Source of the DNA: an uncultured Lentisphaerales bacterium | Lineage (GTDB): Bacteria; Verrucomicrobiota; Lentisphaeria; JABSQK01; UBA12247 | Direction: 5' to 3' | DNA: 64,000 nt | Assembly (NCBI GenBank): GCA_943788985.1 | Contig: CALSSJ010000015.1 | Location: 64,001-128,000, forward strand | Shown here: positions 852 to 60,566 of the stretch, piece after piece | How the letters are laid out: the number at the start of each line of letters is the position of its first letter | Position numbering within the stretch: the stretch's first letter is position 1 | Translations under genes and position numbers: made by a program | Notes under the pieces: model-generated | Databases searched by the model: none | What the model saw: only the letters and a program-made list of their open reading frames with translations | Told to the model about the DNA's origin: nothing

Positions 852-2361
852 GGAGGGCCTCCGCCAGCACACGTTCTTCACTCAGTCCTTCCCGTGGAAA
901 CTCACCTTTCACAATGCCTTCATGCATGATCATTACTCGGTCCGACATGCCCATAATTTCTGGCAAATCCGAAGAAATCATCACCACCGCATAGCCACGG
1001 CTGGCTAACTTGCTGACCAACTGATGCACCGCAGCCTTTGCCGCCACGTCGATCCCCTTGGTCGGCTCGTCCAGTATCAGGATTCGGCAATCACAGGCCA
1101 GCCACTTTCCTAGCGAGACCTTTTGTTTATTGCCACCACTCAGTCCCCCGACCTTCTGCCCTAGGCCCGCAGACTTAATCTCCAGCGCCTCTGCGAACTC
1201 CGCAGCGATCGTCCGCTCCTTGCCCTGGTCCAGCCAGCCGAGAAAGCGACTGCACGACGCCAGAATCGGCAAAGTGATGTTTTCGCAGACGTCCATATCC
1301 AAGACAATCCCCTCTTCATCGCGATCCTCGGGCAGGTAGCCAATGCCTGCGGAGATCGCAGCTCTGGGCGCGCCCACCGTGACAGCTTTTCCTGCCAGAT
1401 ACAGCTGGCCAGAATCAGGACGAGTAATACCAAAGATACTCTTGGCCAACTCGGTGCGGCCAGCCCCCACCAGCCCATAAAGCCCCAGAATCTCGCCGCT
1501 TCGGACCGCCAGAGAAACCTCTTGGTACTCGCCGCTGCGGGAGAACTTCTCGACACGCATGGCCTCGTCGCCAATCACCGCCTCAGTCTTTGGGAACAGG
1601 TTCTTCACCTCGCGCCCGACCATCATCTGCACCAGCGTATCGTGATCCACCTCGTCGATCTTTCGGGTATCCACATGCACGCCGTCTCGCAATGCGGTCA
1701 CGCGGTCGGCAATCGTAAAGATGTCGTCGAGTCGATGCGAAATGAACACGATAGCCGTGCCCTCAGCGCGCAATTGCCGGACAATCTCGAACATGTTATC
1801 GGACTCCGCGCCGCTCAAGGTCGACGTCGGCTCATCCATAAACAAGACCTTTGCCTCGCCGGACAACGCCTTGCCGATCTCGACCAATTGCCGCTCCGCC
1901 GCGGTAAGATGCCCGAGTTTCCGCCGTGGATCCAGGCGCACATTCAAGCGCTCTAGCAACGCCTCTGTTTGCTCATGCATCTCACGCCAAAAAATTCGCC
2001 GCGAGACTAGGCCGTGCGGTTGATGGTTCATGAAGATATTCTCGGCGACACTCAGGTCCGGAAAGACCGCTGGGTCCTGATAGACCGCGCCGATACCGTT
2101 GGCAATGGCATCCCGTGGCCCGGACCAAACCACCGGCTCTCCGCGGAAGCGAATGGTCCCGGACGTCGGCTGAATCACGCCGGTAGAGATCTTGATCAAG
2201 GTCGACTTGCCAGCGCCGTTCTCGCCCACCAACGCATGCACTTCTCCCGGACGCAGATCAAAACTGCACTCCCGCAGAGCCAGTACCCCCGGATACTGCT
2301 TGCGCAGATCCTTCAGCTCGAGTATCACAGTATCCATCGGTTCTGGTTCCACCTTCAGCAA
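844..2361 (-). CDS. sugar ABC transporter ATP-binding protein (RbsA/RhaT-like, two NBDs)
   Basis: Walker [30 protein letters not shown]. The true start may be ATG at 2337. Confidence 0.95.
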
Positions 2362-3779
2362 ACCTGATTCACCTCGATGCCAAGCAGCGCTCCCAGCTTA
2401 TTGAGTGTGCCCCCGACATGGCCAACGCCGATGGCGCAGTGATGTGCCGGACCGCCCATCGTCCAAGTATCCATAAACCCCTTCGCACCAATGGAGAACC
2501 GGTAGCGACTGTTGGTGTTGCCAATCTGCAGCACTGGGCCGGGAACCGATTCGCCCTCGGCCACCTGCAGACAAATAGTGCCATCGCCGCGCTGCACTAC
2601 CGACAGCAGAGTTACCGGGCCATGCCTCACCGACATCTGGATCGACAGGCCTTTGCCCGGTTTACCGTGATAGACAGGCAATGGCACCAAGCCCACTTCT
2701 CCCTCAGCAATCCCAACGTGCGCCGGGCCATCATGCCCCAGATAGACCACATCATCCGTAAAATCCGTCAGATAAAACTCGGAGAACGAACCGCCCACCT
2801 CCAGCAAGTCCAGGATCTTCATCGCCTGCGCGTTCTTGACCTCGCACTCGCCAGCCACCGGGACATTGCGCCCGGTCAGCAGTGTATTGCCAGCAATCAC
2901 CGAGGTGACGATGTTCTCATAGGGGCCTGTGCCCTCATAGTAATAGGCCATTGAGCCCAGCTCATGTCGGTCAATTAGACGATCCAGTGCCACTGAGGTC
3001 CTGGCGGCCCGGGCCAACTCTGACGCCTCGCACTCGTCTGCAACCACAAACTTCTCGTAGAATTCTGCGGTCTTCGCAGCCACCTCGTCGTCGCTCACCG
3101 CCTCCCGCAGGTCATATAGCTCGCACATTTCCAACAGCTCGAAGTGGTTGCCGAAGACCGCGGACTGCTGCGTGAGATCGCTATAAACATCCAGCATGCC
3201 GCAGTAGTAATGTCCGAGCACCCCCACGCGGTTCGCTGCCATTGCGCGGCGGACCCCTGCGGCCGCCACCCAATCCCCAATCTCTCCCCAGGCCTCCTCA
3301 TCAGCCAGATAGCCAGTCACCTGCTGATACGTAATGCCCGCCCGATTGAACACGCAGGCAATCTCGGGCGCGCAGCAGGCCTGGCAATTCTCCAGCCAGA
3401 GCCCCGTCATTTTGCCGCGATCGCCCAGGCTGTTAAACTGCTCGTAGTCCATTTGCGCCACAGGCTGCAAGTTCAAAATCACCACCGGCACGCCTGCCCG
3501 TTGGACCACCGGCAAGACCGTAGAAGACAACGCGTACGTCGTAATGAACAGAAACAGGACATCCACATCTTCCGTCCGAAAGCGATCTCCGACCGAGCGC
3601 GAGACCTGCGGATTGTCTACCAAGCCGCCATCCACCACCTCCGCGCCAAACGCAGTCAGGCGCGCCTTCACCTGCGCTTGGTAGCCCAGCAGATTCTCTT
3701 TCAACCCCGCGAACTGCGGCCAGTACGTATCCAGTCCAATACCGAAAAGGCCTACCCGTGTTGTCCGTTTCGCTTGCAT
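2355..3779 (-). CDS. L-fucose/L-arabinose isomerase family protein
   Basis: [19 protein letters not shown] and the C-terminal GPAHHCAIG are typical of the FucI/AraA-fold family. Lies in an operon with a sugar ABC transporter. Confidence 0.85.
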
Positions 3780-3902
3780 CGTCCCGTCATCCTCTACCTT
3801 GATTCAGCCCAGTCCGTCTCGCTGGAATTGTACCTGATAGATTATATTGTAGAGGAATATCTCGTGATGACAATGTTCAATATGACGACAAGTTTACACA
3901 AA

Positions 3903-5051: not shown

Positions 5052-6038
5052 TTAGCCCGTTGGTTCACGCAGACAGCGTAAGCTGAACAACTCCCCGCCC
5101 TCGGGGAGTTCGTCCTTTCCGTATCGTCGTCGTTTGGCTCGATCCTCGCCGTACATCTCAGCGGCAACCTTCTGCACGAACAGCTTTGAGCCGATCACTG
5201 CCCCATCGGTCCAGTAGCGAACACGACGCGTAGCGACCAACTGAATCGGCGGCTTTTTCTTCCCTTTGTCGTAGGCAGCCTTCACCGTTTCGCTGGTCGC
5301 ATCCTTCTGCGCTGCCTCGACTGCACGAGCTATGTCAGCGCGAAGCTCATCTGCGATCTCCGCAATTGACCAATGCTTGGCACGCTCGCCCAAGGAGCCT
5401 TTGATATGCTTGAAGAATGCCCGGCCAAATGGGTGCTTCCCAGAGCCGTTCCAGGCTCCCCAACTCGAGAATCGATAGTCGGCTGCATCCGCGACTATTC
5501 CCGCTCGGACTGGGTTTAGTTCCACGTACTTCACGCGCGACCAAAGAGCAGCTTCGCCATCCAGCAGCACGCTCTTGAACCGGTCACCCCAAAGGCGGCC
5601 ACTGCGTGTCTGCCGGCGGCTCTTGTTGTACCAGCCGGTGAACAACTGCTGCAGGTCTTTGAGGAAGCGGCTAAAGTCACTGAGGCGGGGGCGGATGTCT
5701 GCGATATCCGGAGCTTCGGTGTCAATCTTACGCTTCGTCTCGTAGTACTTGTTGTAGCGGCGCACCGTCTCTTCAATCGAGGGAAGTTCACCCGGGTCGT
5801 GCAGGACCACGTGATAGTGGTTGCTCATTACGGCATAGGAGATCACCTCCACCGTGTACAGGTTGCTGAGCTTGTGAAGGAGTTTTACAAAGTACTCTTG
5901 CTCCTTGGGCCCGAATGGCCGGTCCGTGGCAAAGCCACCGGTTCGGTTCATGCAGTGGTAGAACGCACCGCCGCCTTGATATCTGATGCGTGCTGTCCTT
6001 ATAGTTTCCCCCCCCCTACTCGTTTTTCCTCTACTCAT
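5052..6038 (-). CDS. REP-associated tyrosine transposase (RAYT, Y1_Tnp/HUH)
   Basis: YHCMNR, HUH motif MSNHYHVVL, LWGDRFKSVL, YVELNPVRAG, DYRFSSW. Confidence 0.9.
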   Translation of the reverse strand: MSRGKTSRGGETIRTARIRYQGGGAFYHCMNRTGGFATDRPFGPKEQEYFVKLLHKLSNLYTVEVISYAVMSNHYHVVLHDPGELPSIEETVRRYNKYYETKRKIDTEAPDIADIRPRLSDFSRFLKDLQQLFTGWYNKSRRQTRSGRLWGDRFKSVLLDGEAALWSRVKYVELNPVRAGIVADAADYRFSSWGAWNGSGKHPFGRAFFKHIKGSLGERAKHWSIAEIADELRADIARAVEAAQKDATSETVKAAYDKGKKKPPIQLVATRRVRYWTDGAVIGSKLFVQKVAAEMYGEDRAKRRRYGKDELPEGGELFSLRCLREPTG

Positions 6039-6368: not shown

Positions 6369-6710
6369 TTACTGCCTGTTTTGGCCGAATCTGCGCTCGT
6401 ATTTCAATGGTGTTACGCCTTCAAGAAGCGCCGTCAACTCTCTGCGCTGCAACGCCATCGTTTGCCCCGTTCCTGGCAAGCGGAAGCGGCCAGATTCCAG
6501 GCGCTTGTACCAAAGCGCAAAGCCATCACCATCCCAGTATAGCACCTTGATCCGATTTCGCAGGCGATTACAAAACACAAACACCGAGACGGTCAAAAGC
6601 TGATCCGGGAAGTGGGCTGCAACTACCCCTGAAAGCCCTTCAAAGCTCTTGCGCATGTCGGTGGGCCCGCGGTACAAGTAGATTCGCTGAATCCCGGCCA
6701 GGCTCAGCAT
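6369..6710 (-). CDS. tnpB: IS66 accessory protein TnpB (Orf2)
   Basis: TDMRKSFEGL, VFVFCNR, IKVLYWDGDGFALWYKRLESGRF. Confidence 0.95.
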   Translation of the reverse strand: MLSLAGIQRIYLYRGPTDMRKSFEGLSGVVAAHFPDQLLTVSVFVFCNRLRNRIKVLYWDGDGFALWYKRLESGRFRLPGTGQTMALQRRELTALLEGVTPLKYERRFGQNRQ

Positions 6711-6994
6711 TCGATCGTCTGAAGCAACTTACGCAACGTTGGCCCATCAAAGTCACATTCGACCATGATCTCAAGGTCTCCTCGCCGGATGCTCAGGCCC
6801 GCACGCCTACCGGTGGGATGGGGCCTCACCAGCTCGACAAATCCATCGTCTGGTACTTCAAGCCGCTTTCGCCAATAGTAGAACTGCCACTGGTGAAGGT
6901 CTTCCTTTCTGCAAAAAGCTGCGATGCTTATGCCGCTGCGTTTCTGAGTCTCCAAGATCTCTTGCCATTGCCCGCGCTTGCTTGTGGTTTCCAT
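6704..6994 (-). CDS. tnpA: IS66 accessory protein TnpA (Orf1, HTH)
   Basis: W...QKRSGISIAAFCRKEDL...FYYWRKRL...FVEL. Overlaps the tnpB start. Confidence 0.9.
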   Translation of the reverse strand: METTSKRGQWQEILETQKRSGISIAAFCRKEDLHQWQFYYWRKRLEVPDDGFVELVRPHPTGRRAGLSIRRGDLEIMVECDFDGPTLRKLLQTIEC

Positions 6995-7079
6995 CTGCGC
7001 TCTCCTGATGCCGGTTGCGAAAACCAACAGGATAAGCCCAGCTCAATCGCGCATCAAGATGTCGGCGTTGGCCGTTCAC

Positions 7080-7302
7080 CCAAGAGCACAGCATTGATCT
7101 GAGCCGACCACAGCGATAGGACACTCCAGTACATTGGCACACACTTGCATGACATAATCTGATTTTTTAGCAATCCCTCCCAAAGCGATGACGCGTTGAA
7201 TGGAGATGCCCTCTTCTACAAATCGATCCAATATGGCTTTGGAACCATATGCGGTGGCCTCAACTAATGCTTTAAAAATATCTGCAGCATCACTACCCAT
7301 CG
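7080..7302 (-). pseudogene. ribulokinase (AraB/FGGY) internal fragment
   Basis: MGSDAADIFKALVEATAYGSKAILDRF...GGIAKKSDYVMQVCANVL...DQCCALG. Cut by IS66 at 7079 and fused to unrelated DNA at about 7302. Lower GC than its surroundings. Confidence 0.8.
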
Positions 7303-7664
7303 AAATGGAAGCAACTCGCTGGCAGCGCCACTCCAGACCAGAACTTTGAAGCGTGACGCGCTGTCCCCAGCGACCTTGGCGACGATGCGCGCATTCTCAA
7401 ATGCCAGGCGAGCGCCATCGCCCACAAGCGCAACAGCGGTGATGCCCTCCGCGCTCGTCAGCGTCGCAATATTCCCCTCCACTTTGCTCTTGGAGCGTTG
7501 GCGATAGGCCAGTTGCACCCGCAAATCCTTGCCGCCGGTTACTTCAAAGCTGCGGGTTACCGCCTTCGTTCCCGGACGCGATTCCAGCCATGGCGACTCG
7601 AGTCTCGGTGCTACCAAGTCATGCCGGGTGGTGGACCAGGTGGCAAGACTGACGGGTCCTGAGC

Positions 7665-7769
7665 CGTTTTGATTGTTCCGGCGTGGTCGCGTTGTATGCC
7701 TTACGAGGTTGGGGTGCATGCGGTGGTTGTCGTTTTGATTGTTCCGGCGTGGTCGCGTTGTATGCCTTA
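7665..7769. CRISPR. putative CRISPR-like mini unit (2 identical repeats, 1 spacer, 66-bp period)
   Basis: CGTTTTGATTGTTCCGGCGTGGTCGCGTTGTATGCCTTA at 7665-7703 and 7731-7769, separated by unique sequence. No cas genes in the window. Confidence 0.4.
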
Positions 7770-7907
7770 GTATGCTTCGATATTGGCCGCAGTTCAAGAC
7801 TATTCGCCGTCCACTCTCAAGGCTTCGCCCACAACTGGAACCCATCGCCTCAGCACGCCATCCCAACTATTAGCTTATTATTATTCGCCAATAGTTGAGG
7901 TATACCT

Positions 7908-9320
7908 ATGCCCGCGCCATGTGGAGATAAAACTCCCGGCTTCTATCGGCGGCGCACACCGCGTGAGTCGCCGCTGTTTCAGTTGCTCGAACAGCATTTT
8001 GACGAGTTCGAGCGGGTGTATCCGGACCGTTACCAAGAGCGCTATGGTTTCTTTCGGCCCGTAATTCGCAAGGCCGTTGATGCTTTTCTGGGTTGCGGCG
8101 ACCTGCGCGAGGGGTTCGCTCGAGTTCGCTGCCCCGACTGCGGACACAACCTGTTTGTCGCATTTTCCTGTAAGCAGCGCGGCATCTGCCCAAGTTGCCA
8201 TCAAAAACGTATGCTGGTCACGGCGATCAACATTGCCGAAAACGTGGCAGTCGCTGTTCGGCATCGCCAGTTCGTCTTTACCATGCCGAAACGGTTCCGC
8301 GCTTACTTTCGCTATGACCGGGATCTACTCAAGCATCTTCCCCGCCTTGCCTGGGAAACAGTGCGCGACGTCTACCGTGCCGTGCTCGATCGCGATGACG
8401 TTGTTCCCGGCATGGTCGGCGCCCCACAGAGCTTTGGCGATCTAATAAATTGGCATCCGCATATGCACACTCTATCCACCGATGGAGCGTTTGCCAAAGA
8501 CGGCACGTATCTGCCTGTGCCCGATGATCTGCCGATTGAGCCGTTCCTCAAGCTCTGGGAGCACAAGATCTTTGCATTGCTACTGGCAGAGGGCCGCATC
8601 ACCGAGAAGGTCGTCGAGCAGATGCGTAGCTGGAGGCACTCCGGGTTCAGCGTTGATAAGAGCGTCTACCTGCCGGCCGGTGACCAGGCTGCTATTCAGC
8701 GTTTGCTTCAGTACATGCTCAGATGCCCGTTCAGCCTGAAGCGCATGATTCAGACCACGGCGGATGGTAATGTTGCCTACCGAGCGACGCGCGAGAAGTG
8801 TATCGCCTTCCCGACCCGCAACGATACTCAGTTCCGTCGTGGTGTGTCGCGCAACTTTGAAATATTCGAGCCGCTCGACTTTATTGCTGAGGTCACGCAG
8901 CATATTCCGGAGCACGGCGCGCAGACAGTTCGCTATTACGGCTGGTATTCAAATAAGGCTCGCGGCATGCGCGCCAAGGCCGCAGAACAGGCAAAGGCAA
9001 AGCAGTCTAATGGCCTTGAGCCCCTCACCACCGATGAGAGCGATACGCCGTATCGTAAATTATGCCGTATGCGCTGGTCGGCGCTGATTAAACGAGTTTA
9101 CGAAGTAGATCCATTGTGCTGTCCCCAATGTGGCGGCGCGATGACTATCGTCGCGTTCGTTGAGCAGAAGGACCAGGCCGATGTCATTGAGCGTATTCTC
9201 AAGCACTGTCAGCTATGGAATGATTACCCGCCCAGGGCGCCACCCAAGCCAGCCGCCGCTAGTGAATTTGAGCTGGAAGTTGAGTATGTAGACTTCGACG
9301 AGTTTCTGATGGGTTTCTAA
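7908..9320 (+). CDS. IS91/ISCR-family rolling-circle transposase (Zn_Tnp_IS91 + Y2_Tnp)
   Basis: Zinc motifs CGD...CPDCG...FSCKQRGICPSC, HUH WHPHMH, SGFSV, single-Tyr RLLQYMLR (ISCR-like), VRYYGWYSN, C-terminal CPQCGG. Confidence 0.95.
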   Translation: MPAPCGDKTPGFYRRRTPRESPLFQLLEQHFDEFERVYPDRYQERYGFFRPVIRKAVDAFLGCGDLREGFARVRCPDCGHNLFVAFSCKQRGICPSCHQKRMLVTAINIAENVAVAVRHRQFVFTMPKRFRAYFRYDRDLLKHLPRLAWETVRDVYRAVLDRDDVVPGMVGAPQSFGDLINWHPHMHTLSTDGAFAKDGTYLPVPDDLPIEPFLKLWEHKIFALLLAEGRITEKVVEQMRSWRHSGFSVDKSVYLPAGDQAAIQRLLQYMLRCPFSLKRMIQTTADGNVAYRATREKCIAFPTRNDTQFRRGVSRNFEIFEPLDFIAEVTQHIPEHGAQTVRYYGWYSNKARGMRAKAAEQAKAKQSNGLEPLTTDESDTPYRKLCRMRWSALIKRVYEVDPLCCPQCGGAMTIVAFVEQKDQADVIERILKHCQLWNDYPPRAPPKPAAASEFELEVEYVDFDEFLMGF

Positions 9321-9412
9321 AAGCGCCCCGTCAGGAAGACGGTATCTCAATGCTCAAATTCGCGTATTCTACCTCCAAAACACCTATCTGCGCGGAATAT
9401 CGGCACGCAGCA

Positions 9413-9458
9413 GGAAGGGAGGACGGCCGGGCCAGCTGGCCCGGCCGTCCTCCCTTCC
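9413..9458. repeat. perfect 46-bp palindrome upstream of oriIS
   Basis: GGAAGGGAGGACGGCCGGGCCAG|CTGGCCCGGCCGTCCTCCCTTCC with no spacer. Repeated at 32586-32631. Confidence 0.95.
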
Positions 9459-9599
9459 GTTTCTTCGCCGTCTCCGCCCCGTTTCCTTGAATACCTCATC
9501 CCGTCAGCGTATCTTGGCTGTATCGGGAAAAAGCAATTTCCTATCAGTTTATCTGGCCGAGAGATTAGTTCCTTACGAGGCCAAACTGATGAATTTGAG

Positions 9600-11529: not shown

Positions 11530-11651
11530 GTAGGTTGGGCCTCCGAGCCCGACCATTCGTGCAACCAGCTATGGAGTCGGGCTCGGAGGCCCAACCGACT
11601 TATACCATTCGTGTAACCAGCTATGGAGTCGGGCTCGGAGGCCCAACCTAC
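11530..11651. repeat. GTAG-type REP cluster (REPIN-like)
   Basis: GTAGGTTGGGCCTCCGAGCCCGAC at 11530-11553, its exact inverse at 11628-11651, and a partial inverse at 11576-11596 from a ~52-bp tandem duplication. Confidence 0.8.
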
Positions 11652-11673
11652 CTACCCGACGCTCGGACTCCCA

Positions 11674-15026: not shown

Positions 15027-15357
15027 TCAGCCTCCTTCTCCTCCTCTCGCTCGTCCTCCCCTTCTTGGCCGCTCAATCGTACGACGCAAATCCCTTTGCG
15101 TCGCAAGACTTCTCAGAAATAGACGCATGGGGACAAGCGTCCTACGATCTTGCCAGCGTTGCGGGCTCCGCACCACCCATGACAACGTTCTCCGAAGTGG
15201 ATGCTGGCATGAGTGAGACTGTCACGGCCCCAGTGCATTCGGCCACTCGCACCTACAAAGGTAGGGGCGGTCGAAAACAAGTTCTCAGCGACGCCGATGA
15301 CCTTGATGCGGCACTTCTTCTTGACGAAGCCGATCTCCACAGAGCTAAGGGGGTGTT

Positions 15358-43143: not shown

Positions 43144-43245
43144 GTGCGCGCTGCACAGGCGACCGAGGCTTGTTGCCAGTAGCCTGTTTTTTGCAGGGCC
43201 AAGACCTATACCTACTGTGATCGAGATGGTCGGTCATGGCTGCGA

Positions 43246-44253: not shown

Positions 44254-44459
44254 GCCAAGTCTCCTGCCATCCAATTGCTGATTTGGTATAAGCAGATTCC
44301 GTGCCCACTGCGTTCAGGTAGAAGCCTTGTGCGAAATCGGACGGTTGCCGAAAGGGGGTCTCCGTTCTGCGGATCGCGGCAGAGTGCGGAATAAAATTGC
44401 TGGCAGTAAGGACCTGTCGCGATATGTTCCCCCAAGTTCGCAAAATAATGAGTCGCGCG

Positions 44460-46290: not shown

Positions 46291-46292
46291 TC

Positions 46293-46970: not shown

Positions 46971-46980
46971 GAGAGCGATC

Positions 46981-47669
46981 ATGAGAGACGATACAAGTGA
47001 GTTTGAGTTCGAGGTTTCCTGTAAGCCTGACTTTGCGTATTTGAACGTACAGGTCCCGGAGGGCGTGACGCTGAAGGTGGAGTCCTCCGCCATGGCCTGC
47101 ATGGATACGAACATGAAGATGAAGACCAAGATGCGTGGCGGCCTCGGGCGCATGTTCACGGGGGAGTCTTTGTTCATTAATGAGTTTACGGCCGAGGGTG
47201 CGCCTGCCGAGATTGGCATCGCGCCAGGAGCGCCGGGGATCTGGCGCATGTCTACCTGGAAGGCGGTGACGATGAGATCTATCTGCAGAATTCCGGCTAC
47301 GTGGCATCCAGTGTCGGCGTGGATCTGGCGACCAAGTGGCAAGGGCTGGTGAAGGGATTTTTCGGGGGCGAAGGGCTGTTTCTGGTGAAGGCGACCGGAA
47401 CGGGGGATCTGTGGTTTTCGACCTTTGGGGCCATGATCGAAGTGGACGTGGAAGACGAGTACGTGGTGGACACGGCCTACATCGTGGCCTTTACCGCGGG
47501 CTTGGACTACAAGGTCTCCCGCGTTGGTGGCTACAAGTCCTTGTTCCTCTCTGGAGAAGGCTTTGTCGCCCGCTTCAGCGGCCAGGGCAAGCTCTGGATT
47601 CAGACGCGGCAGTTGCCTGCGTTCGGCGCTTGGGTTTTGCCATTCCGGCCGGTGAAGGACCCGGGGTAG
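46981..47669 (+). pseudogene. TIGR00266/AIM24 family protein, frameshifted
   Basis: The N-half (TGESLFINEF) and C-half (GGEGLF, VDTAYIVAF, SGEGFV) are in different frames. One G is missing in the run at 47235-47238. Confidence 0.85.
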
Positions 47670-47752
47670 GTGCGTTTCACGTTGCTCCTGGCCGTTACAT
47701 TGGCGTCGCACCGGAAGACGGGGACGGAGACTTCGTGCCCCCGCCACCACAC

Positions 47753-49141: not shown

Positions 49142-49452
49142 TTTTCTTCCTATCGTTCTCTCATCATCTGCCAGGGACGACGTGCAAGATTCTATCCCGG
49201 ACGAAAAACTGGCATTCCAGCCAGAGATGGTGTGTCCAAGTCCTCTACGGCCACCAAGAAGGCTACAACCAAAAGAAGCCAGACTAGACGTCTCGGCCTT
49301 ATCAATGTACTCTCCAGCAACCATCGTCAAGTGGACAATATCAACTTATGGCTCCCGCCGAAATGTAACGTCACTTCGGCGCGGGCCCTTAATGAAACGG
49401 ACCATAGTCGCGGCCTCTCTGGCGATCGACTGCTTGTTTGATACTTGAGCCA

Positions 49453-50598
49453 TTAGGGACGGGGAGCTAACCTCGCATACGCGGCGGCGGCGGCCTCCCA
49501 GCAGAAGTGCTTCTGCACGTGCTTGCGGGCTGCGGGCCCGTAGCCTTTGCGGCTCTCAAGCAGCTCTCTGATTCCGGCTGCCAGCGCTGCCGCGTCTTCT
49601 GCCGGGACGAGGCAGCCGTTCTCGCCATCCACGACGATGTCTTCGCTCCCGGAGACCTGCGTCGCGACCACTGGCAGTCCGCAGGCCATTGCCTCCAGCA
49701 GGGCATTCGGCAGGCCCTCGGCGCGAGAGGGAAAGACGAAGCCGTCGGCCCCCTGATAGGCTGCTGGCAGTGCGGCGCGTTCACACCAGCCGGAAAACTC
49801 TACTCGGCCTGCCAGCCCGAGCTGTTGGGCCTGCGCCGTCAGCGCCGCTAGCTCCGGGCCATCGCCCACAATTTTCAGCGTCCAGTCGAGCTCCTTGAGC
49901 GTAGACAGCGCCTCCAACAACACATCCAGGCCCTTCTCGAACGAGAGCCGTCCGACATACAGCAACCGACCGTTGGGCGCTTCCGATCTAGCGGGCGGGC
50001 AGTACACTGCGGTGTCGACGCCGCTTGGGATGATCGAGATTTGCGTCTGGAGATCCGCTTTGCGGGCCATGTCAGCCAGGCCTGCGGAGTTCGCAACTAC
50101 GGCTGTAGCGCGGCGCCAGAGGAAGCGGATAAACGGCGCTGTGAGCTGGTGCTGGCGGCGTAGTTGCTGCGGCTGCATCCCCGGGACATCGCCACCACGC
50201 AACGAGACCACGTATGGCACGCCGCGAATCAGCCGTAGCCACCACGCCGCGGGTCCGCCAGGAATACCAAAATAGGCGATTGTGAGATCGGGTCGCCAGC
50301 CGCGAGTTACCGACAACACGCCGGTTCCGGAGCTGAGCATGAAGGTCAGCATCTCGAACACTGAACAGCGCTCGACCGCGCCGCGCATCACCGGAATCCG
50401 CCGGATGTGGTAGCCGTCTACCGTCTCATTGCGCGGCTGTCCCCGAAAGCGCGAGCTGAGCACACGCACGTCGTGCCCCTGGCGGGCCAACTCGCGAGCC
50501 GTGTGCATGGTGGCGTTTCCAGCACCGCCGCCGAGCGGGGGAAACTCGTAGTTGATCAGCAGAAATCGCTTCGCCACTGCACCCTCAGATTTAGACAT
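49453..50598 (-). CDS. glycosyltransferase family 4
   Basis: EFPPLGGG, YVGRL..EKG, EGLPNALLEAMACG. Confidence 0.92.
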   Translation of the reverse strand: MSKSEGAVAKRFLLINYEFPPLGGGAGNATMHTARELARQGHDVRVLSSRFRGQPRNETVDGYHIRRIPVMRGAVERCSVFEMLTFMLSSGTGVLSVTRGWRPDLTIAYFGIPGGPAAWWLRLIRGVPYVVSLRGGDVPGMQPQQLRRQHQLTAPFIRFLWRRATAVVANSAGLADMARKADLQTQISIIPSGVDTAVYCPPARSEAPNGRLLYVGRLSFEKGLDVLLEALSTLKELDWTLKIVGDGPELAALTAQAQQLGLAGRVEFSGWCERAALPAAYQGADGFVFPSRAEGLPNALLEAMACGLPVVATQVSGSEDIVVDGENGCLVPAEDAAALAAGIRELLESRKGYGPAARKHVQKHFCWEAAAAAYARLAPRP

Positions 50599-50600
50599 GA

Positions 50601-52448
50601 TTAGCGTCGCCGGTTCTGCAACACCCACATGTTCCAGAGAAACGCGCGGTTGTCTGCGTTGTGCGCAAGATGCTCGCTCACCTGGCGCTGCACGAAATCC
50701 TGGCGCATGCCGAAGCTGTTTGCCGGATCCACGATCAGCGCGCCGTCACGCAGCCAGCGGGCGATCGGCATACCAAAGCCATGCTTTGCCCGATACAAAA
50801 TGTCATGCGGAAGGACCGGCTCCAAGGCTCGCTTGAGCAAGTACTTGGTCTCGCCATTGCGGTATTTCCAGGCGTGCGGAATGCGGCGAATAAAGTTCAC
50901 CAGGTCGATATCGAGAAACGGCGCGCGCACCTCTAACGAGTGCATCATGCTGGCGCGATCCACCTTCACCAGGATGTCGTCCTGGAGGTAGAGCTTGGTG
51001 TAAAACTGCAAGGTTTTGTCGACCATGTGCTCCTGTGGGCAAGCGTCCCAGTGGGCGATTGCCTCGGCGTAGAGCTCAGTGAGCGGCAGCGGCTTGTCGA
51101 ACAACTCGCCAATCTCGACGGGCCCGAGCGGCCCCAGCCAAACGGCATTCCACAAATTCCTCGGGTATGACAGGCCCCGGAGTGTGCGCTTGATCTTGAA
51201 GTCCAGGCTCATGTTTGTGTGCGAGACTGGCAATGCCGCCATCACGGTGCGCAGCAGTTCGTGGCCTTTGCCGGGCATCATACGGTCATAGAGGCGGGCT
51301 GGCCGCAGTGCCTTGAACGGATCATAGCCGGCAAACAACTCGTCCGCGCCATCTCCGCCCAGTGCCACCGTTACCGCCTCCCGGGCATTGCCACAGAGCA
51401 GGTACGTTGGCACGATCGAAGAGTCGCCCATCGGCTCATCGAGCCGGCTAGCAATCTTTGGCGCCAAGCCGCTGGCATTTCCCATGTGCAAGATATCGCT
51501 GCGATGCGTACAGCCGACGTGCTCAGCTACTTGCCGCGCGTACTCCGACTCATCGAAGCTAGCCTCTTCGAAGCCAATTGAGAAGCTGTGCACCGCGGTG
51601 CTGGACGCGGCCTGTGCGTAGTGCGCAATGGCCGAGGAATCCACCCCACCGCTCAAGAACACCCCCAGCGGCACATCGGACATCATCCGCCGCTCTACTG
51701 CCTGGCCCAGCAAGTGTCGTAGCTCCTCGCACCAGGCTGGTTCAGGTTTATGCGAGATCTCGGTAAATGGGTCCAGGATGTACTCCCAGTATTGCGAAGT
51801 CCGCACTGTCCGGCTCTCCAGATCCACCGTTAGATTGTATCCACCGGGAAGTTTGCGAACTTCGCGATACAGGGTGTGCGGTGCCGGAATATAGCCGTAG
51901 GCAAAATACTTCTGCAAGCCAGCGACCGACTGGGTAAAGGTCAGGCTGCTGTGTTGCTCAAGCGCGTTAAGCTCCGAAGCGAAAGCAAAGCAGCCTGCGG
52001 ACTCCGCATAGAAAAGTGGCTTCTGGCCGAACCGGTCACGACTTAAGAACAGCTGATTGGCCTTGCGGTCATAAATGGCGAAGGCCCACATCCCGTTCAG
52101 CTTCTCCGGCAGCGCCTCCCCCCACTCGCGGTAACCATGCAGCAGCACTTCCGTATCCGAATGATCTGTGATAAAGCGGTGGCCGCGGGACTGCAGATCG
52201 GCGCGGAGCTCACGGTGGTTGTAGATCTCGCCGTTGAAGGTTACACCCAGCTGTGCGTCCGACGTCCACATGGGCTGGCTGCCGTCCGCCAGGTCGACAA
52301 TCGAAAGGCGCCGGTGTCCGAGGCCCACCGCGCGCTCTGGATCAAACCAATTATTGGCCCCATCCGGGCCACGATGCGTCAGTACTTGGGCCATCGCCTC
52401 AAGGTCCTGGAGCGTTCCTGCCCCGCAAAATCCTGCTATGCCGCACAT
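50601..52448 (-). CDS. asnB: asparagine synthase (glutamine-hydrolysing) family amidotransferase
   Basis: MCGIAG, HRGPD, GHRRLSIVD, FNGEIYN, LSGGVDSS, GDGADELFAGY, KVDRASM, EVRAPFLD. Confidence 0.95.
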   Translation of the reverse strand: MCGIAGFCGAGTLQDLEAMAQVLTHRGPDGANNWFDPERAVGLGHRRLSIVDLADGSQPMWTSDAQLGVTFNGEIYNHRELRADLQSRGHRFITDHSDTEVLLHGYREWGEALPEKLNGMWAFAIYDRKANQLFLSRDRFGQKPLFYAESAGCFAFASELNALEQHSSLTFTQSVAGLQKYFAYGYIPAPHTLYREVRKLPGGYNLTVDLESRTVRTSQYWEYILDPFTEISHKPEPAWCEELRHLLGQAVERRMMSDVPLGVFLSGGVDSSAIAHYAQAASSTAVHSFSIGFEEASFDESEYARQVAEHVGCTHRSDILHMGNASGLAPKIASRLDEPMGDSSIVPTYLLCGNAREAVTVALGGDGADELFAGYDPFKALRPARLYDRMMPGKGHELLRTVMAALPVSHTNMSLDFKIKRTLRGLSYPRNLWNAVWLGPLGPVEIGELFDKPLPLTELYAEAIAHWDACPQEHMVDKTLQFYTKLYLQDDILVKVDRASMMHSLEVRAPFLDIDLVNFIRRIPHAWKYRNGETKYLLKRALEPVLPHDILYRAKHGFGMPIARWLRDGALIVDPANSFGMRQDFVQRQVSEHLAHNADNRAFLWNMWVLQNRRR

Positions 52449-52649: not shown

Positions 52650-53804
52650 ATGAGAACGATGAGACACTTATTGCTGTTTCTACTGGCTGCCGGTTGGCTG
52701 CCAGCACAGGTCCCCGTACCGTTCCTGCCGGAGCGCGCGAAGGTGATCGCAGCGCTAGAAGAGCCTATGGCTAAGGGCATGGATGTCTCCGTGGCCCTCA
52801 CAGCCTGGTCTGCTGCGGAGTCCGCAACCACGCCGGAGCAGAAGCGGAACCACTACCTGCGGGCACTTGCTGCGCTTGAGAACGTGGAGCCGTTGCCTCA
52901 GAGCGACTGGGGGGAGAATCCCAGCGATGTTCGCATCGAATTTCTCGAGGAACTTCGAGCGGCAGAGCCAGGTGTGAAAATGCAGGTGATCCGCTTTCAG
53001 GTGGACGGCCTGACCCAGTACGGGCTGGTCACTAGGCCGATCGCCGCGGGCGATACGCCTTTGCCACTGCTGATCTATGTGCACGGTGCAGCCTATGGCG
53101 TGCCCGTGAGCACCATCGCCTGGCAGGCTGACGTGGCCCGCATGGGCTACGTGGTCGCAGCGCCGGCTTTTCGCGGTGAACCCGCCTTTCTGCCGCCGAT
53201 CACTGGCCTTGACTACACCAGCGAGGGTGAGGTCGAGAACTACGCCGGCGAACCGCGCGACGTTCTCGGCCTGGCGGACGGCATGCGCGATCTACCGTAC
53301 GTAAGGCACGGGAAGTTCGGGATCTTCGGGCATAGCTTTGGGGCAGGAGCCGGGTTGCTGGCTGCCGCCAGATCCGACGACGTTGCCTGTGTGATCAGCT
53401 ACGATGCCTGGCTGGTCAATCCGTTTACCTTCTACTGGCTACGGCTGAGCGGCGGCTCGATTTACTACTGGGGATCTTGGGAGGCGTACTGCGAGGCCCC
53501 CGTGCCGGAGCAGCTGTCAGGGCTCATGGCCCGCAGTATCGCCCATCATGTCGACCGCCTGAAGTGCCCCGTGCAGATCTTCATCGGGCAACTCGACGGC
53601 GCGGGCTATCACACCTGCCACGACTATCTCGCCGCGCAGTTGAAGGCGCACAGCGTACCACACGAGTACCACGTGATCCCTAATGGCTCCCATAACTTCG
53701 CCCTCTACCGGGACGAGGCACCAGCGAAATCTGCTTGGAAGCTGCAACTGCCGTTTATGCTGCAGTACTTTCCACCCGGGAAACTTTCTGGAGGTCCCAA
53801 GTGA
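52650..53804 (+). CDS. secreted alpha/beta hydrolase (S9 peptidase/esterase-like)
   Basis: Signal peptide, YVHG, nucleophile elbow GHSFG, D and H (GSHNF) of the catalytic triad. Confidence 0.85.
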   Translation: MRTMRHLLLFLLAAGWLPAQVPVPFLPERAKVIAALEEPMAKGMDVSVALTAWSAAESATTPEQKRNHYLRALAALENVEPLPQSDWGENPSDVRIEFLEELRAAEPGVKMQVIRFQVDGLTQYGLVTRPIAAGDTPLPLLIYVHGAAYGVPVSTIAWQADVARMGYVVAAPAFRGEPAFLPPITGLDYTSEGEVENYAGEPRDVLGLADGMRDLPYVRHGKFGIFGHSFGAGAGLLAAARSDDVACVISYDAWLVNPFTFYWLRLSGGSIYYWGSWEAYCEAPVPEQLSGLMARSIAHHVDRLKCPVQIFIGQLDGAGYHTCHDYLAAQLKAHSVPHEYHVIPNGSHNFALYRDEAPAKSAWKLQLPFMLQYFPPGKLSGGPK

Positions 53805-56222: not shown

Positions 56223-57042
56223 GCTACCCGAGGTCGAGACCGTCGGCCGTGCCCTACGTCCACAACTTCTCGGCCGCAGCATTCGCACCATCTCCGCCCA
56301 CATCGAAAGCCTGCGTCATCCTCTGACTTTACAGCAGGATGCCAGCCTTTGTGGTGCCCCTGTGGCTGCCGTCACCAGACGCGCGAAGTATCTCACCGTT
56401 GCCTTGGCCAACGGCCGCGGGATTTTGTTACATCTCGGCATGACCGGACACTTCCGGATCGAACCTGCGGACTCCGCACATCGCAAGCACGATCGGCTCG
56501 AGTTTTTCCTCGACAACGATCAAGTCTGGCGCTTCAATGACATCCGCCGCTTTGGCATTGCCAAGGCCGTAAACGTAGATGCCGCAGGCAACCCGCTCGA
56601 AGGACTGCCAGCGCTCGGTCCGGAGCCCTGGGATCCAGCCTGGGGCGGCGCCGCGCTTCACACCTGGCTGAGCCGGCGAATCGCCGCGATCAAGCCGCTC
56701 ATTATGGACCCGCGCTGCGTTGTCGGCGTGGGCAACATCTACGCCAGCGAAGCCCTGCATCGCGCCCGCATCTCACCCACCCGGCCCGGGAAATCCCTCT
56801 CCCGAAAGGCCTGTGACCGCCTGGTTTGCGAAGTTCGCAAAACCTTGGAAGAGGCGATCGAAGCTGGCGGGACCACCATCTCAGATTTTCGCGGGGTCGA
56901 TGGCAGCGAAGGCAGTTTCGAGCAAGAGTTGCTCGTCTATGGCCGTGCCGATGCCCCCTGTCTCTCTTGCGAGGAGGGCACCATTCTGCGATCCGTTCAG
57001 GGCGGGCGCGCCACCTATTCCTGCGCCAAGTGCCAGCGATGA
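56215..57042 (+). CDS. mutM: formamidopyrimidine-DNA glycosylase
   Basis: MPELPEVE, RRAKY, HLGMTG, GVGNIYASE, C-terminal zinc finger. Confidence 0.97.
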   Translation: MPELPEVETVGRALRPQLLGRSIRTISAHIESLRHPLTLQQDASLCGAPVAAVTRRAKYLTVALANGRGILLHLGMTGHFRIEPADSAHRKHDRLEFFLDNDQVWRFNDIRRFGIAKAVNVDAAGNPLEGLPALGPEPWDPAWGGAALHTWLSRRIAAIKPLIMDPRCVVGVGNIYASEALHRARISPTRPGKSLSRKACDRLVCEVRKTLEEAIEAGGTTISDFRGVDGSEGSFEQELLVYGRADAPCLSCEEGTILRSVQGGRATYSCAKCQR

Positions 57043-58094
57043 GCGAAGACTTCATGCGCGAACTCCGCACGATCGCCCAAGAAACGCGGGCGCTGATTTT
57101 GGATGCGTTGCCTGCACCACAGGAGCCTGAGATCTTGTTTCAGTTGGTGCGCGCCTATCCAGAGCGTGGTGGGAAATGCTTGCGCCCAGCGCTGTGTCGC
57201 TGGTGCTGCGGCATGCTCGGCGGGGCCCCACAGGAGGTCCGCCGCGTTGCCGCCGCCGCTGAACTCTTTCACACTTGGACGCTGGTGCACGATGACATCA
57301 TCGACGAAGACGACGAGCGCCGTGGCCAGCCCTCCGCCCACGCCTTGGCTCGCGACAGCATCAGCCACCCGCGGGCGGTGAAATTTGGCGCAGACATGGC
57401 TCTGTTGGCCGGAGACATCCAACACGCGATCAGCGCCGACCTCGTCCTCGCTGCGACCGAAGACGGGCTCCCCGCCGACGTCGCGATCGCTATTGCCCGC
57501 CAAATGCACCACGTGCTCGCGCCGGGCCTGATTCGTGGCGAAGCTGCCGATACCGAGTTCGAGTACCGGGCGATTGACTCCGTGAGCCACAGTGAAATCG
57601 AAGCGATGATGCGCGACAAGACCGGGCTACTCCTCGCCTTCGCCGCGCGAGCTGGTGCCATGGCAGCGTTGCGAACTCCGCACCCCGATGATCCGCAAGT
57701 TGCTGCGCTGGCCGATATGGCCACTTCTGCCGGCCTGGCCTTCCAGCTGCAAGATGATATTCTTGGGATGTTTGGCGATCCCAAGGCCGTTGGCAAGCCG
57801 ATCGGCTCCGACCTGCGTCAGGGGAAGCGTACGCTGCTTACGGCCTATGCCTTCGAGCTGCTCGATCCAGCTGGCTCAGCCCGCCTGCGGGAGCTTTCTG
57901 TTGCGGAGTCCGCAACAGACGCCCTGGCCGAGGCGCAGAACCTACTGATCGGCTGCGGCGCATTGCAGCGTGTGCAAGACGCTGCCGCCGCGCATGTGCA
58001 GCGGGCCATGGACATTCTGGCGGCCCAACCCGTCGGGCCCTTCCGGGATCTGCTGGAACAATGGCTTCACTTTCTCACCGCCAGAATCACCTGA
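57039..58094 (+). CDS. polyprenyl diphosphate synthase
   Basis: GGKCLRP, LVHDDIIDEDDERRG, KTG, AFQLQDDIL, DLRQGKRT. Confidence 0.95.
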   Translation: MSEDFMRELRTIAQETRALILDALPAPQEPEILFQLVRAYPERGGKCLRPALCRWCCGMLGGAPQEVRRVAAAAELFHTWTLVHDDIIDEDDERRGQPSAHALARDSISHPRAVKFGADMALLAGDIQHAISADLVLAATEDGLPADVAIAIARQMHHVLAPGLIRGEAADTEFEYRAIDSVSHSEIEAMMRDKTGLLLAFAARAGAMAALRTPHPDDPQVAALADMATSAGLAFQLQDDILGMFGDPKAVGKPIGSDLRQGKRTLLTAYAFELLDPAGSARLRELSVAESATDALAEAQNLLIGCGALQRVQDAAAAHVQRAMDILAAQPVGPFRDLLEQWLHFLTARIT

Positions 58095-58612: not shown

Positions 58613-58692
58613 AGTAGAATCCGTAATAGGTCGGTTGCTTGCGCGGCGATAGTGGGGATACTGTGTGCCCATAACGGAAAGAGAGCCAGCAG

Positions 58693-59076
58693 ATGATTAT
58701 TGGAATTGGGACAGATCTGGTGCAGATCTCACGTCTAGCAGGCGTGATGGAGCGGCACCCGGAACCGTTCTTACGGCGAACATACACGGCTGTCGAGCAG
58801 GCGGCGGCGCGAGAGCGTAAGAATAGTCTGTCGTTTTTGGCGGGGCGCTGGGCCGCGAAGGAGGCCGTTTCAAAAGCCTTACGAACCGGGATCGGGGTCC
58901 ACTGCAGCTTTACCGATGTCGAGATTACCCGCAACGCCGATGGGGCACCGCGCATTTCCCTCTCCGGCGACGCGTTGCGAACTTCGCAAGCCCTGGGCAT
59001 CGACAGCTGGCACGTGTCTATCACCCATGAGCAAGACTACGCCTGCGCGTTCGTGATTGCGGAGCGGACCGGATGA
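58693..59076 (+). CDS. acpS: holo-ACP synthase
   Basis: GIGTDLV, LAGRWAAKEAVSKA, VSITHE. Confidence 0.95.
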   Translation: MIIGIGTDLVQISRLAGVMERHPEPFLRRTYTAVEQAAARERKNSLSFLAGRWAAKEAVSKALRTGIGVHCSFTDVEITRNADGAPRISLSGDALRTSQALGIDSWHVSITHEQDYACAFVIAERTG

Positions 59077-60566
59077 AGGTCGTCAGCGGGACCACGATGC
59101 GCCAGGTAGACGCGGCGACCATTGCAGCTGGCCTCTCGGATCAGGTGCTGATGGAGCGGGCGGGCCAAGGAGCTACGGCTGCCATCGTCGCGTTTCTGGC
59201 AAACTCCGCAGCGTCGCATCGACGTCGCATCGTCGTGTACGCGGGCAAGGGCAATAATGGTGGAGATGGCTACGTCATCGCCCGCTGTCTGAGCGAGAAA
59301 GGGTACGATGTCGCCCTGGTCGCGAGTCATGAATCTAGCGCGCTCACCGGCGCAGCGGCTCACCACGCGCGCTTGCTTCCCACCACCGTACCAATCTTGA
59401 CTGCGTATTCCTTGTCCCCTGATTGCGTGGTGATCGATTGCCTGCTCGGGACAGGAATTGCCGGCCCAGCTCGAGTTCCGGTCAGCCATCTGATCCGTGA
59501 GATCAATGAGGCTGGCTGTCTCGTGATTGCGATCGACATAGCCTCTGGCGTCAATGCCGACGATGGTTCCGCAGCAGGGGAGGCCATTCGGGCCGACCTG
59601 ACTGTGACGATTGGCTGCCTCAAGACCGGCTTGCTCACCGGGGAGGGAGCAAAACTACGAGGCGTGCTCCGACTTGTGGATATCGGAATCGATCCACAAG
59701 CGCTGGGAGTTGCGGAGTCCGCAGGCGAGGCATTTACCGCGGCAGAGGCGCAGGCATTGCTCGGGCGGCTGCCACATGGCTGCCACAAGGTCACCACGGG
59801 ATGTGTCACCGTCTTCGGAGGCTCGGCGCTTTACCCAAGCGCACCGTTCCTTAGCGGGGAGGCTGCACTGCGGTGCGGCGCCGGCCTCGTGACGGTCGCT
59901 GTGCCCACAGCGATTCCGGTTCTGCCCGTGCCGCGTGCCCTGATCGTGCAGCAACGCAGCGGCCCGCAGACACACAGGGCCTTGGCCGAGGCCGAGCGCG
60001 CGGCTCTCACCAGCCAGGATGTCATCGCCGTTGGGCCCGGTCTGACACGTGAGCCCGAGGCCGTGGGGATGGTGCAACAGCTCTTGAGCACGGAGATAAA
60101 GCTGGTGGTAGATGCCGATGCCTTGGTTGCGATCTCCGCAGATCTGCTCCCGAAGCAGGCACCCTGGGTGCTGACTCCGCACGCAGGAGAGTGTGCTAGG
60201 CTGATCGAGCGCCTGGGCGGCAGTTGGCCGGAGGACCGCCGAGAGCTGGCCCGGGAACTATCCGCACAAACCGGGGCAGTCGTGGTCCTGAAGGGGCCGA
60301 ACACGATTGTGGCAGCGCCCGATGGCTCGGTCACTTGGAACACAACTGGGACTCAGGCTCTGGCCACAGGCGGGACAGGTGACATCCTGACCGGCATGAT
60401 CGCGGGCTTTTGGGCCGGTGGGCTTGCAGCTGCCGATGCCGCCAGGCTTGCTACTTTTGTCCACGGCAGCGTTGCGGAGTCCGCAATCTGCCAGCGGGCC
60501 TTCATCGCCGACGACTTGCTGGCTGGCTTGGCGCCCGCGCTCGCGGCCATCTCTCCGTTCGCCTGA
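59073..60566 (+). CDS. nnr: bifunctional NAD(P)H-hydrate epimerase/dehydratase
   Basis: LMERAG, GKGNNGGDG, DCLLGTG, DIASG, VGPGL, DADAL, LTPHAGE, LATGGTGDIL. Confidence 0.95.
   Translation: MKVVSGTTMRQVDAATIAAGLSDQVLMERAGQGATAAIVAFLANSAASHRRRIVVYAGKGNNGGDGYVIARCLSEKGYDVALVASHESSALTGAAAHHARLLPTTVPILTAYSLSPDCVVIDCLLGTGIAGPARVPVSHLIREINEAGCLVIAIDIASGVNADDGSAAGEAIRADLTVTIGCLKTGLLTGEGAKLRGVLRLVDIGIDPQALGVAESAGEAFTAAEAQALLGRLPHGCHKVTTGCVTVFGGSALYPSAPFLSGEAALRCGAGLVTVAVPTAIPVLPVPRALIVQQRSGPQTHRALAEAERAALTSQDVIAVGPGLTREPEAVGMVQQLLSTEIKLVVDADALVAISADLLPKQAPWVLTPHAGECARLIERLGGSWPEDRRELARELSAQTGAVVVLKGPNTIVAAPDGSVTWNTTGTQALATGGTGDILTGMIAGFWAGGLAAADAARLATFVHGSVAESAICQRAFIADDLLAGLAPALAAISPFA

Follow-up and report, generated by a model that had tools for sequence, protein, structure and literature searches.

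Hyper-abundant words written inside genes are known from very few lineages: the DNA uptake sequences (DUS) of Neisseriaceae, the uptake signal sequences (USS) of Pasteurellaceae, and the highly iterated palindrome HIP1 (GCGATCGC) of cyanobacteria. Whether such words are maintained by drive or by selection is still argued. Here, we describe an independent case from a distant, uncultured lineage. The DNA analysed, referred to below as the window, is a 64-kb stretch from an uncultured Lentisphaerales bacterium (contig CALSSJ010000015.1, positions 64,001 to 128,000), and the element in question is the 13-bp word TGCGRASTYCGCA, a longer, bipartite palindrome with an unusually strong footprint on proteins. 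This motif behaves like a HIP or an uptake sequence, yet it belongs to neither family, being a new sequence in a different lineage.

Several described systems offer points of comparison. A study on DUS "dialects" reportedly found that related lineages carry variant uptake sequences. The matS site is a 13-bp palindrome with an undefined centre that is read by a dimer, and its few dozen sites are confined to the terminus region. Repetitive extragenic palindromic (REP) elements are intergenic and 20–40 nt long. Uptake sequences double the frequencies of the tripeptides encoded by them, and genes that have no homologue in related genomes lack such sequences (Findlay and Redfield, PMC2817400). HIP1 and the alternate HIPs each have a cognate methyltransferase, and deviations from HIP1 are biased to its first and last bases (PMC4390886). 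Methylation-linked repair, nucleoid structure and transformation are all under discussion as functions of HIP1 (PMC4390886, PMC5861425, PMC13756078, bioRxiv 10.1101/2024.09.10.611283). According to Xu et al., HIP1 is subject to selection and has a role in the nucleoid (PMC5861425). Chromosome organisation has been proposed for its periodicity. Another study reports a correlation between HIP1 abundance and type IV secretion system proteins and proposes a role as uptake signal (PMC13756078). Methylated HIP1 raises transformation 9- to over 100-fold (bioRxiv 10.1101/2024.09.10.611283).

An earlier note on this DNA had listed 22 exact and 13 one-mismatch copies of the motif and suggested a new HIP1- or DUS-like system. 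All of these copies are present, and two more one-mismatch copies lie at 22967 and 60169. Dinucleotide-preserving shuffles of the window contain 0.01 exact copies on average and at most 1 (100 shuffles); with one mismatch allowed, there are 37 matches (22 exact and 15 one-off) compared with 0.57 in shuffles. The absence of enrichment over a codon-preserving null had been set beforehand as the refutation test, and on this test the suggestion stands. Within 47 open reading frames (ORFs), the exact word is counted 24 times (22 copies, two of them counted twice in overlapping ORF calls), whereas shuffling of synonymous codons yields 0.57 ± 0.68 copies (maximum 3, 500 runs). A codon-pair null, that is, a first-order codon Markov model that keeps the proteins and whose tables include the motif copies themselves, yields 0.48 ± 0.67 (maximum 3, 500 runs). 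In an order-3 Markov scan of the window, sub-words of the motif are the top over-represented 9- to 11-mers, with observed/expected ratios of up to about 200.

Exact copies occur once per 2.9 kb overall and once per 1.3 kb within 37.6–60.5 kb. As an outside control, we used 80 loci from many phyla, drawn from among the matches listed to a very generic peptide pattern and serving as controls only; these contain 2 exact copies in total in 1.29 Mb. One exact copy in the 4.9-kb locus of a Rhodothermales metagenome-assembled genome (MAG) was treated as chance. The enrichment is thus confirmed as real. The literature was searched for the literal 11- and 13-mers and for the spaced form, with subscription journals and supplements outside its scope, and only unrelated primer matches were returned; in the searchable literature, we found nothing on over-represented palindromes in Lentisphaerae. 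The HIP1 word itself occurs only 5 times in the window, and the motif is not a DUS or USS word, in agreement with the earlier note, which had not recognised it as any of these. The new system of the HIP1 or DUS kind that the note proposed is therefore a sound candidate.

The palindrome is real, but the 13-bp definition given in the earlier note is too narrow and should be widened to TGCG-N5-CGCA with an inner RASTY and a flanking T and A. The spaced form TGCG-N5-CGCA occurs 40 times in the window, compared with 3.69 ± 1.86 in shuffles, while the same tetramers at spacings N0–N4 and N6–N11 yield only 0–5 copies each. T precedes 15 of the 22 exact copies (position −1, P = 3e-6) and A follows 12 of them (position +13, P = 4e-4), so the full word spans about 15 bp; conservation of the flanks extends no further than this one base on each side. 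The consensus is T-TGCG-RASTY-CGCA-A, a bipartite palindrome, palindromic except for the central S, in which invariant inverted tetramers stand at a fixed 5-bp spacing. The inner pentamers of the 40 broad copies comprise GASTC (10), AASTC/GASTT (10), AASTT (2) and ATCTC/GAGAT (5), and the remaining 13 copies have 13 different inner pentamers, each seen once. The two half-sites choose G or A independently, with 10 GG, 10 mixed and 2 AA copies compared with 10.2, 9.5 and 2.2 expected. When copies are compared with the degenerate pattern, 12 of the 15 one-offs are changed at inner positions and 3 in an outer tetramer. Invariant inverted tetramers, fixed spacing and a softer centre would fit the site of a DNA-binding protein with two-fold symmetry, for example a dimer.

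Three observations concern the variable positions. All five mixed R/Y copies within 38316–50083 have the T form on the plus strand (TGCGGA S TTCGCA), and the five elsewhere in the window are all of the opposite form. GC skew is strongly positive over 36–48 kb, and the orientation of the mixed copies could reflect mutation that is biased by replication strand and falls on a tolerated position, although the numbers are small. The ATCTC-class variant contains GATC, which occurs 413 times in the whole window compared with about 235 expected from base composition, a figure that takes no account of codons.

The pattern of deviation bears on one described explanation of HIPs, the methylation-linked biased repair of Elhai's model, in which a methyltransferase marks all or part of the motif and a methyl-dependent mismatch or very-short-patch-like repair converts near-misses, so that copies ratchet up. 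With about one copy per 1–3 kb, this GC-rich palindrome resembles HIP1 and the alternate HIPs. Relative to the strict palindrome TGCGGANTCCGCA, 10 of 13 one-offs differ by G5 to A alone (equivalent to C9 to T), a transition of the kind that cytosine deamination produces. By our own reading of the sequence, the outer tetramers also contain a symmetric adenine pair (T1/A13). However, the deviations gather in the inner pentamer and the outer bases are nearly invariant, which is the reverse of HIP1. Moreover, the R/Y states of the half-sites are independent, cause radical amino-acid changes (S/F, E/K) and recur in the related locus L002 described below; independent, coding-changing states fit tolerated degeneracy better than unrepaired damage. 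A ratchet that acts on one-off words only would also find few precursors for a word with 12 specified bases, and the scan of 62 ORFs in the window showed neither a methyltransferase nor a Vsr gene. We therefore consider biased repair unlikely.

The same features separate the motif from the HIPs as a class. It shares with them a short, GC-rich, hyper-abundant, intragenic palindrome that acts on DNA rather than RNA or protein. HIPs are over-represented 15- to 300-fold at roughly one copy per kilobase, and the 22 copies here compare with 0.01–0.57 expected. It differs in length (13–15 bp instead of the 8 bp of HIP1), in its unrelated sequence and in its non-cyanobacterial lineage. It varies at the centre, with the outer tetramers intact in 40 copies and altered in 3, whereas HIP1 varies at its ends; HIPs lie within and between ORFs, whereas the non-ORF part of the window (18%) is free of exact copies; and HIPs have a cognate methyltransferase, for which the 62 ORFs of this 64-kb part of the genome offer no counterpart.

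All 22 exact copies are located inside ORFs and are read in three frames, as the earlier note had stated. In the main frame (15 of 22), xxT GCG RAS TYC GCA encodes A-[EDKN]-[SF]-A; three copies are read as TGC GAA/GGA ..., giving C-E-L/V-R, and four as nTG CGR ..., giving L/V-R-T/S-x. The peptides that the note had named are correct. Read on the sense strand, half of the copies (11) have G at the centre and the other 11 have C, and the mixed R/Y variants divide 4 to 6, so that there is no bias toward the transcript strand. The motif, together with its preceding T, spells ten of the 12 A[ED]SA tetrapeptides, and the codons that this takes are non-preferred ones: GCA and GCG make up 19% and 27% of Ala codons, and TCC makes up 23% of Ser codons. 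Near-saturation is also evident, as 24 of 30 motif-capable peptide sites carry the motif (22 of 28 without the two double-counted copies). With three frames, both strands and an evenly divided centre, these data support a constraint on the DNA itself rather than on protein or RNA.

They also speak to the idea that the word is a hairpin acting in RNA or follows from biased use of codons, dipeptides or protein motifs. Although the word can fold (a 5-bp stem with a 3-nt loop) and one frame is preferred (15 of 22), single copies form weak hairpins of −3.4 to −4.8 kcal/mol, sense-strand bias is absent, and Rfam has zero matches in the window. The three frames encode unrelated peptides, and the synonymous-codon and codon-pair nulls leave about 0.5 copies compared with the 24 counted. 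This idea is refuted by the nulls and by strand symmetry, and we leave it next to no probability.

The footprint on proteins is large. Motif-compatible peptide sites number 30 in the window compared with 3.0 ± 1.7 (maximum 8 of 200) in residue-shuffled proteins, which means that such peptides are about 10 times commoner than amino-acid composition predicts. Per 1000 amino acids, the window has 1.65 compatible sites, compared with 0.38 in 119 Nnr homologues, 0.38 in 119 HypE, 0.08 in 118 HypF and 0.34 in 150 polyprenyl synthases. In the Nnr, HypE and HypF alignments, the 40 motif-coded residues stand in columns of much the same conservation as the others (0.62, compared with 0.66 elsewhere; P = 0.17). 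At these positions, however, the residue of the window is common to 35% of homologues, compared with 48% elsewhere (permutation P = 0.017). At 8 sites in Nnr, HypE, HypF and polyprenyl synthase, the alignments contain no gap, from which it follows that the motif was written by substitution and not inserted. A DNA-level force thus fills about 80% of the synonymous opportunities, bends proteins and acts by substitution.

Such a history is difficult to reconcile with a short mobile or templated element, similar to REP elements with their REP-associated tyrosine transposases (RAYTs) or to miniature inverted-repeat transposable elements, that a transposase would spread. The likeness lies in the highly iterated short palindrome and in a weak RAYT-like ORF, which contains one ATCTC-class copy at 5352. 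However, REPs are intergenic, longer and inserted as units, whereas the motif is intragenic (22 of 22 copies inside ORFs), is made by substitution, aligns without gaps at 8 sites and has flanks that are unconserved past one base per side. We consider this explanation close to refuted and its probability very small. The RAYT-like ORF itself (5052–6038, minus strand, 328 amino acids) matches REP-associated tyrosine transposases weakly (NCBIfam 55 bits, cut-off 80; Pfam Y1_Tnp E = 3e-4), and a 47-nt stretch of it (5416–5462) recurs at 62434–62480 with 85% identity.

Relatives were sought among the same listed matches and by protein searches. After the 99–100% identical P0001, P0121 and P0241, the next-best identities are 52% for Nnr, 71% for HypE, 59% for HypF and 47% for polyprenyl synthase, and the named Nnr matches are Lentisphaerae, Victivallales and Kiritimatiellae MAGs. 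No close relative is among the loci listed: the best matches reach 48% over a 1.9-kb contig and 43% for L002, and synteny beyond acpS-nnr was not found. L002 is an 11.8-kb locus from an uncultured Lentisphaerae MAG with 65% GC, whose Nnr is 43% identical to that of the window. It contains 5 copies of the inner 11-mer GCGRASTYCGC, two of which share flanks and may not be independent, whereas the other 79 loci listed contain 8 copies in 1.28 Mb. The spaced form TGCG-N5-CGCA occurs 3 times in L002, compared with 1 copy summed over 11 other spacings, the strongest spike of the 80 loci. The outer T/A is often missing from the L002 copies, and those in its nnr stand at other positions than the copies in the window's nnr. 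These counts suggest that L002 carries a looser, 11-bp variant of the motif. The force behind the motif is limited to a lineage.

In the relatives of Nnr, HypE, HypF and polyprenyl synthase, conservation of sites was judged from peptides. For example, the HypE relatives P0122 (71%) and P0123 (67%) have CELR(N) at the 38316 site of the window, and P0122 has A-E-S-A at the 38332 site. The Nnr relative P0007 (46%) has A-K-S-A at the first nnr site and two more compatible peptides.

Along the window, the first 36.77 kb contain only 4 of the 22 exact copies, and the other 18 fall within 37.6–60.5 kb (binomial P = 2e-4 for a boundary chosen post hoc). The broad family TGCG-N5-CGCA is more evenly spread, with 13 copies before 36.77 kb and 27 after, which indicates that the left part contains mostly degenerate copies. 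No copy, even in the broad form, is found in two 2275-bp copies of an IS91-type insertion sequence (IS) or in 29800–36879, which comprises IS remnants and a gene of 41% GC. The motif therefore appears to be scarce in mobile or foreign DNA, although the numbers are small and the boundary was set post hoc. Judged by codon usage and GC content at third codon positions per gene, motif-bearing genes tend to be GC-richer, but native and foreign DNA are not cleanly separated.

The mobile DNA was characterised as follows. The IS91-family element (Y2 HUH, ISCR-like) is present in two direct copies, at 7275–9549 and 30448–32722, which are 99.96% identical and each encode a 470-amino-acid transposase (7908–9320 and 31081–32493). 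They bracket about 21 kb with a GH43 gene, an oxidoreductase, an AAA/PD-(D/E)XK gene, HipA and a sugar catabolism cluster, and this segment may be composite or mobilised by rolling circle. A 642-bp repeat that is 99.8% identical (6438–7079 and 32731–33372) encodes an IS66-type TnpA accessory ORF (6704–7027 and 32997–33320); it precedes the left-hand IS91 copy and follows the right-hand one. A low-GC island at 32.7–36.7 kb, which contains a DUF3050 gene (34173–34943) of 41% GC in a surrounding 4-kb stretch of 50% GC and adjoins IS remnants and a truncated sulfatase ORF (36131–36739), is probably foreign DNA.

Clustering of exact copies is one of the points in favour of a site for an abundant nucleoid-associated or chromosome-organising protein, kept by selection and similar in form to the sites of matS/MatP, SlmA and Noc. 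The 6-1-6 or 4-5-4 palindromic architecture is typical of dimeric DNA-binding proteins, and in HypE and Nnr relatives motif-coded peptides stand at the same places as in the window. The density is one to two orders of magnitude above that of matS, SlmA or Noc-type sites, and the broad family (13 copies before and 27 after 36.77 kb) is more evenly spread. In addition, it is hard to see how a small benefit per site could fill about 80% of opportunities and bend proteins about 10-fold. The comparison with matS made in the earlier note holds for the 13-bp palindromic architecture only: the sequence is unrelated, and 22 exact or 40 broad copies in 64 kb are far denser than matS. On balance, we regard a nucleoid site as improbable.

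The explanation that we rank first, though tentatively and at somewhat under an even chance, is that an uptake- or transformation-type drive enriches a lineage-specific, hyper-abundant bipartite palindrome. In this mechanism, base substitution writes the motif into coding DNA, a single sequence-specific factor of two-fold symmetry (a dimer, for instance) would read it, and a DNA-level drive would favour motif-bearing DNA, most likely through preferential uptake and/or recombination of same-species motif-bearing DNA during natural transformation. DUS and USS have been proposed to accumulate in this way, and recent work points in the same direction for HIP1, itself a palindrome. We infer a DNA-level drive because near-saturation and the cost to proteins are too great for selection acting site by site. 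An uptake-type drive comes first because, among known classes, DNA uptake sequences alone unite a long specific word, a density near one per kilobase within genes, inflated peptides, a preferred frame, low numbers in acquired genes and lineage-to-lineage variation.

The likeness to DUS and USS can be followed point by point. Those words are 9–12 bp or more and present in hundreds to thousands of copies, and the density in the 64 kb fits this. As with them, the word is long and specific, occurs about once per 1–3 kb with many copies intragenic, inflates the peptides that it specifies (30 compared with 3.0 in shuffles), has a preferred frame (15/3/4) and has a variant in a related lineage (L002); it may also share their scarcity in recently acquired DNA, judged here from few copies and a post hoc boundary. 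The inflation is about 10-fold relative to shuffled proteins, compared with about 2-fold for USS tripeptides (PMC2817400), although the units and nulls differ.

Several points weigh against an uptake-type drive. Classical uptake sequences are asymmetric, oriented words and DUS are often intergenic, whereas the motif is a bipartite palindrome with no intergenic copies (0 of 22, where ORFs leave 18% of the window uncovered; P = 0.0135) and no terminator-like pairs. No competence, pilus or methyltransferase gene is present among the 62 ORFs, although 64 kb is a small sample of the genome. Three further loci from the Planctomycetes–Verrucomicrobia–Chlamydiae (PVC) group, L003, L009 and L025 (Verrucomicrobiota and Victivallales), show no enrichment, and neither P0002 (Nnr, 52%) nor P0242 (HypF, 59%) has any compatible peptide. 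The evidence from relatives consists of one 11.8-kb locus and a few peptides, and the placement of the organism as PVC- or Lentisphaerota-like from its proteins is tentative. The same-position motif peptides in HypE relatives (67–71%) and in one Nnr relative (46%) could mean that sites are kept by selection, as has been argued for HIP1 (PMC5861425), and not renewed by drive.

The uptake-type drive has a more specific form, in which an uncultured PVC (Lentisphaerota-like) lineage would have its own self-recognition signal for uptake or transformation, built as a bipartite palindrome of 13–15 bp, with a dimeric receptor and lineage-specific variants. This form is possible but doubtful. We know of no natural transformation or self/non-self DNA signal in PVC bacteria, and the motif hints at one or the other; competence is not known in a lineage of this kind. 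If this specific form were true, Proteobacteria and cyanobacteria would no longer be the only groups with such a system, and the signal would be strong enough to rewrite proteins about ten-fold. In any case, the motif offers a fresh test of which genes travel with such words, whether competence genes, methyltransferases or nucleoid proteins. For practical purposes, it may mark native versus foreign DNA in MAGs of the lineage, and it could help to make relatives genetically tractable, as methylated HIP1 does for cyanobacteria.

The exact copies are listed below, with ORF names from Pfam.

1192–1204: exact copy (TGCGAACTCCGCA) in an ABC-ATPase ORF (844–2361, minus strand), read A-E-F-A
14873–14885: exact copy in an AAA-ATPase/PD-(D/E)XK ORF, read A-D-S-A
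24294–24306: exact copy in an arabinose-isomerase-like ORF (22986–24542, minus strand), read A-E-F-A
29787–29799: exact copy in an AraC-type regulator ORF, read A-E-S-A
37601–37613: exact copy in a Kdo-transferase (WaaA) ORF, second frame, read L-R-S-S-Q
38316–38328: exact copy in hypE, third frame, read C-E-L-R; family majority E-I-L-R
38332–38344: exact copy in hypE, 3 bp from the previous copy, read A-D-S-A; family majority A-E-R-A
38479–38491: exact copy in hypE, variable columns, read A-N-S-A
39061–39073: exact copy in hypE, read A-D-S-A; the first A stands for an H found in 114 of 119 homologues
41041–41053: exact copy in hypF, variable region, read A-K-S-A
42360–42372: exact copy in hypF, read C-E-L-R-N; R-E-L-R-N in P0242 (59%)
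50083–50095: exact copy in a GT4 glycosyltransferase ORF, read A-N-S-A
51793–51805: exact copy in an asparagine synthase ORF, read V-R-T-S-Q
51996–52008: exact copy in the asparagine synthase ORF, read A-E-S-A
52814–52826: exact copy in an S9 peptidase/DLH-like ORF, read A-E-S-A
56466–56478: exact copy in mutM, read A-D-S-A
56827–56839: exact copy in mutM, read C-E-V-R; also covered by the ORF call of the polyprenyl synthase, whose 5' end is probably drawn too long there
57670–57682: exact copy in the polyprenyl synthase ORF, variable loop, read L-R-T-P-H
57902–57914: exact copy in the polyprenyl synthase ORF, variable region, read A-E-S-A
58976–58988: exact copy in acpS, read L-R-T-S-Q
59711–59723: exact copy in nnr, variable inter-domain linker, read A-E-S-A; A-K-S-A there in P0007 (46%)
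60473–60485: exact copy in nnr, read A-E-S-A; family consensus HGLAAELA, window HGSVAESA

The one-off copies are as follows.

1348–1360: one-off (TGCGGAGATCGCA) of the ATCTC/GAGAT class, which has 5 copies in total
3066–3078: one-off, inner position altered, outer TGCG/CGCA kept
5352–5364: one-off (TGCGATCTCCGCA) of the ATCTC class, within the RAYT-like ORF
15160–15172: one-off, inner position altered
22967–22979: one-off, inner position altered; absent from the earlier list
24363–24375: one-off, inner position altered
24976–24988: one-off of the ATCTC class
36880–36892: one-off with central A (TGCGGAATCCGCA) in waaA; on the gene strand GCG GAT TCC GCA, read A-D-S-A
40227–40239: one-off, inner position altered
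42748–42760: one-off of the ATCTC class
43705–43717: one-off, inner position altered
51854–51866: one-off, outermost base altered (A13 to G)
57057–57069: one-off, outermost base altered (T1 to C)
60128–60140: one-off of the ATCTC class
60169–60181: one-off, outer G4 to T; absent from the earlier list

The two neighbouring hypE copies are separated by 3 bp, as had been noticed before, and the pair (38311–38349) can jointly form a hairpin with a 12-bp stem as single-stranded DNA (−11.9 kcal/mol, z = −4.2). They belong to a hydrogenase maturation cluster at 38182–43143 (minus strand), which comprises hypE, hypD, hypF and a hydrogenase maturation protease (42736–43143). This cluster has the highest GC in the window and contains 6 exact motif copies, none of them in hypD.

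With regard to the other gene content, the scan of 62 ORFs in the 64-kb window, which covered methyltransferase, Vsr, competence and pilus genes, also returned no candidate reader of the motif. A HipA-family kinase, the toxin of a type II toxin-antitoxin system, is encoded at 16515–17747 among small ORFs without a family match. A direct repeat of about 105 nt (19449–19553 and 19972–20077, 91% identical) lies between UPF0047 and TIM-like genes, and a tandem duplication of 51–52 nt is found at 11552–11654, at the 5' end of the GH43 ORF. Two ORFs of about 190–200 amino acids, at 36131–36739 and 61198–61761, match only the first 56–70 of 301 sulfatase profile positions and may be truncated or frameshifted sulfatase genes. 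Tentatively, the sulfatases, the GH43 enzyme and the sugar isomerases fit a polysaccharide degrader of the PVC group.

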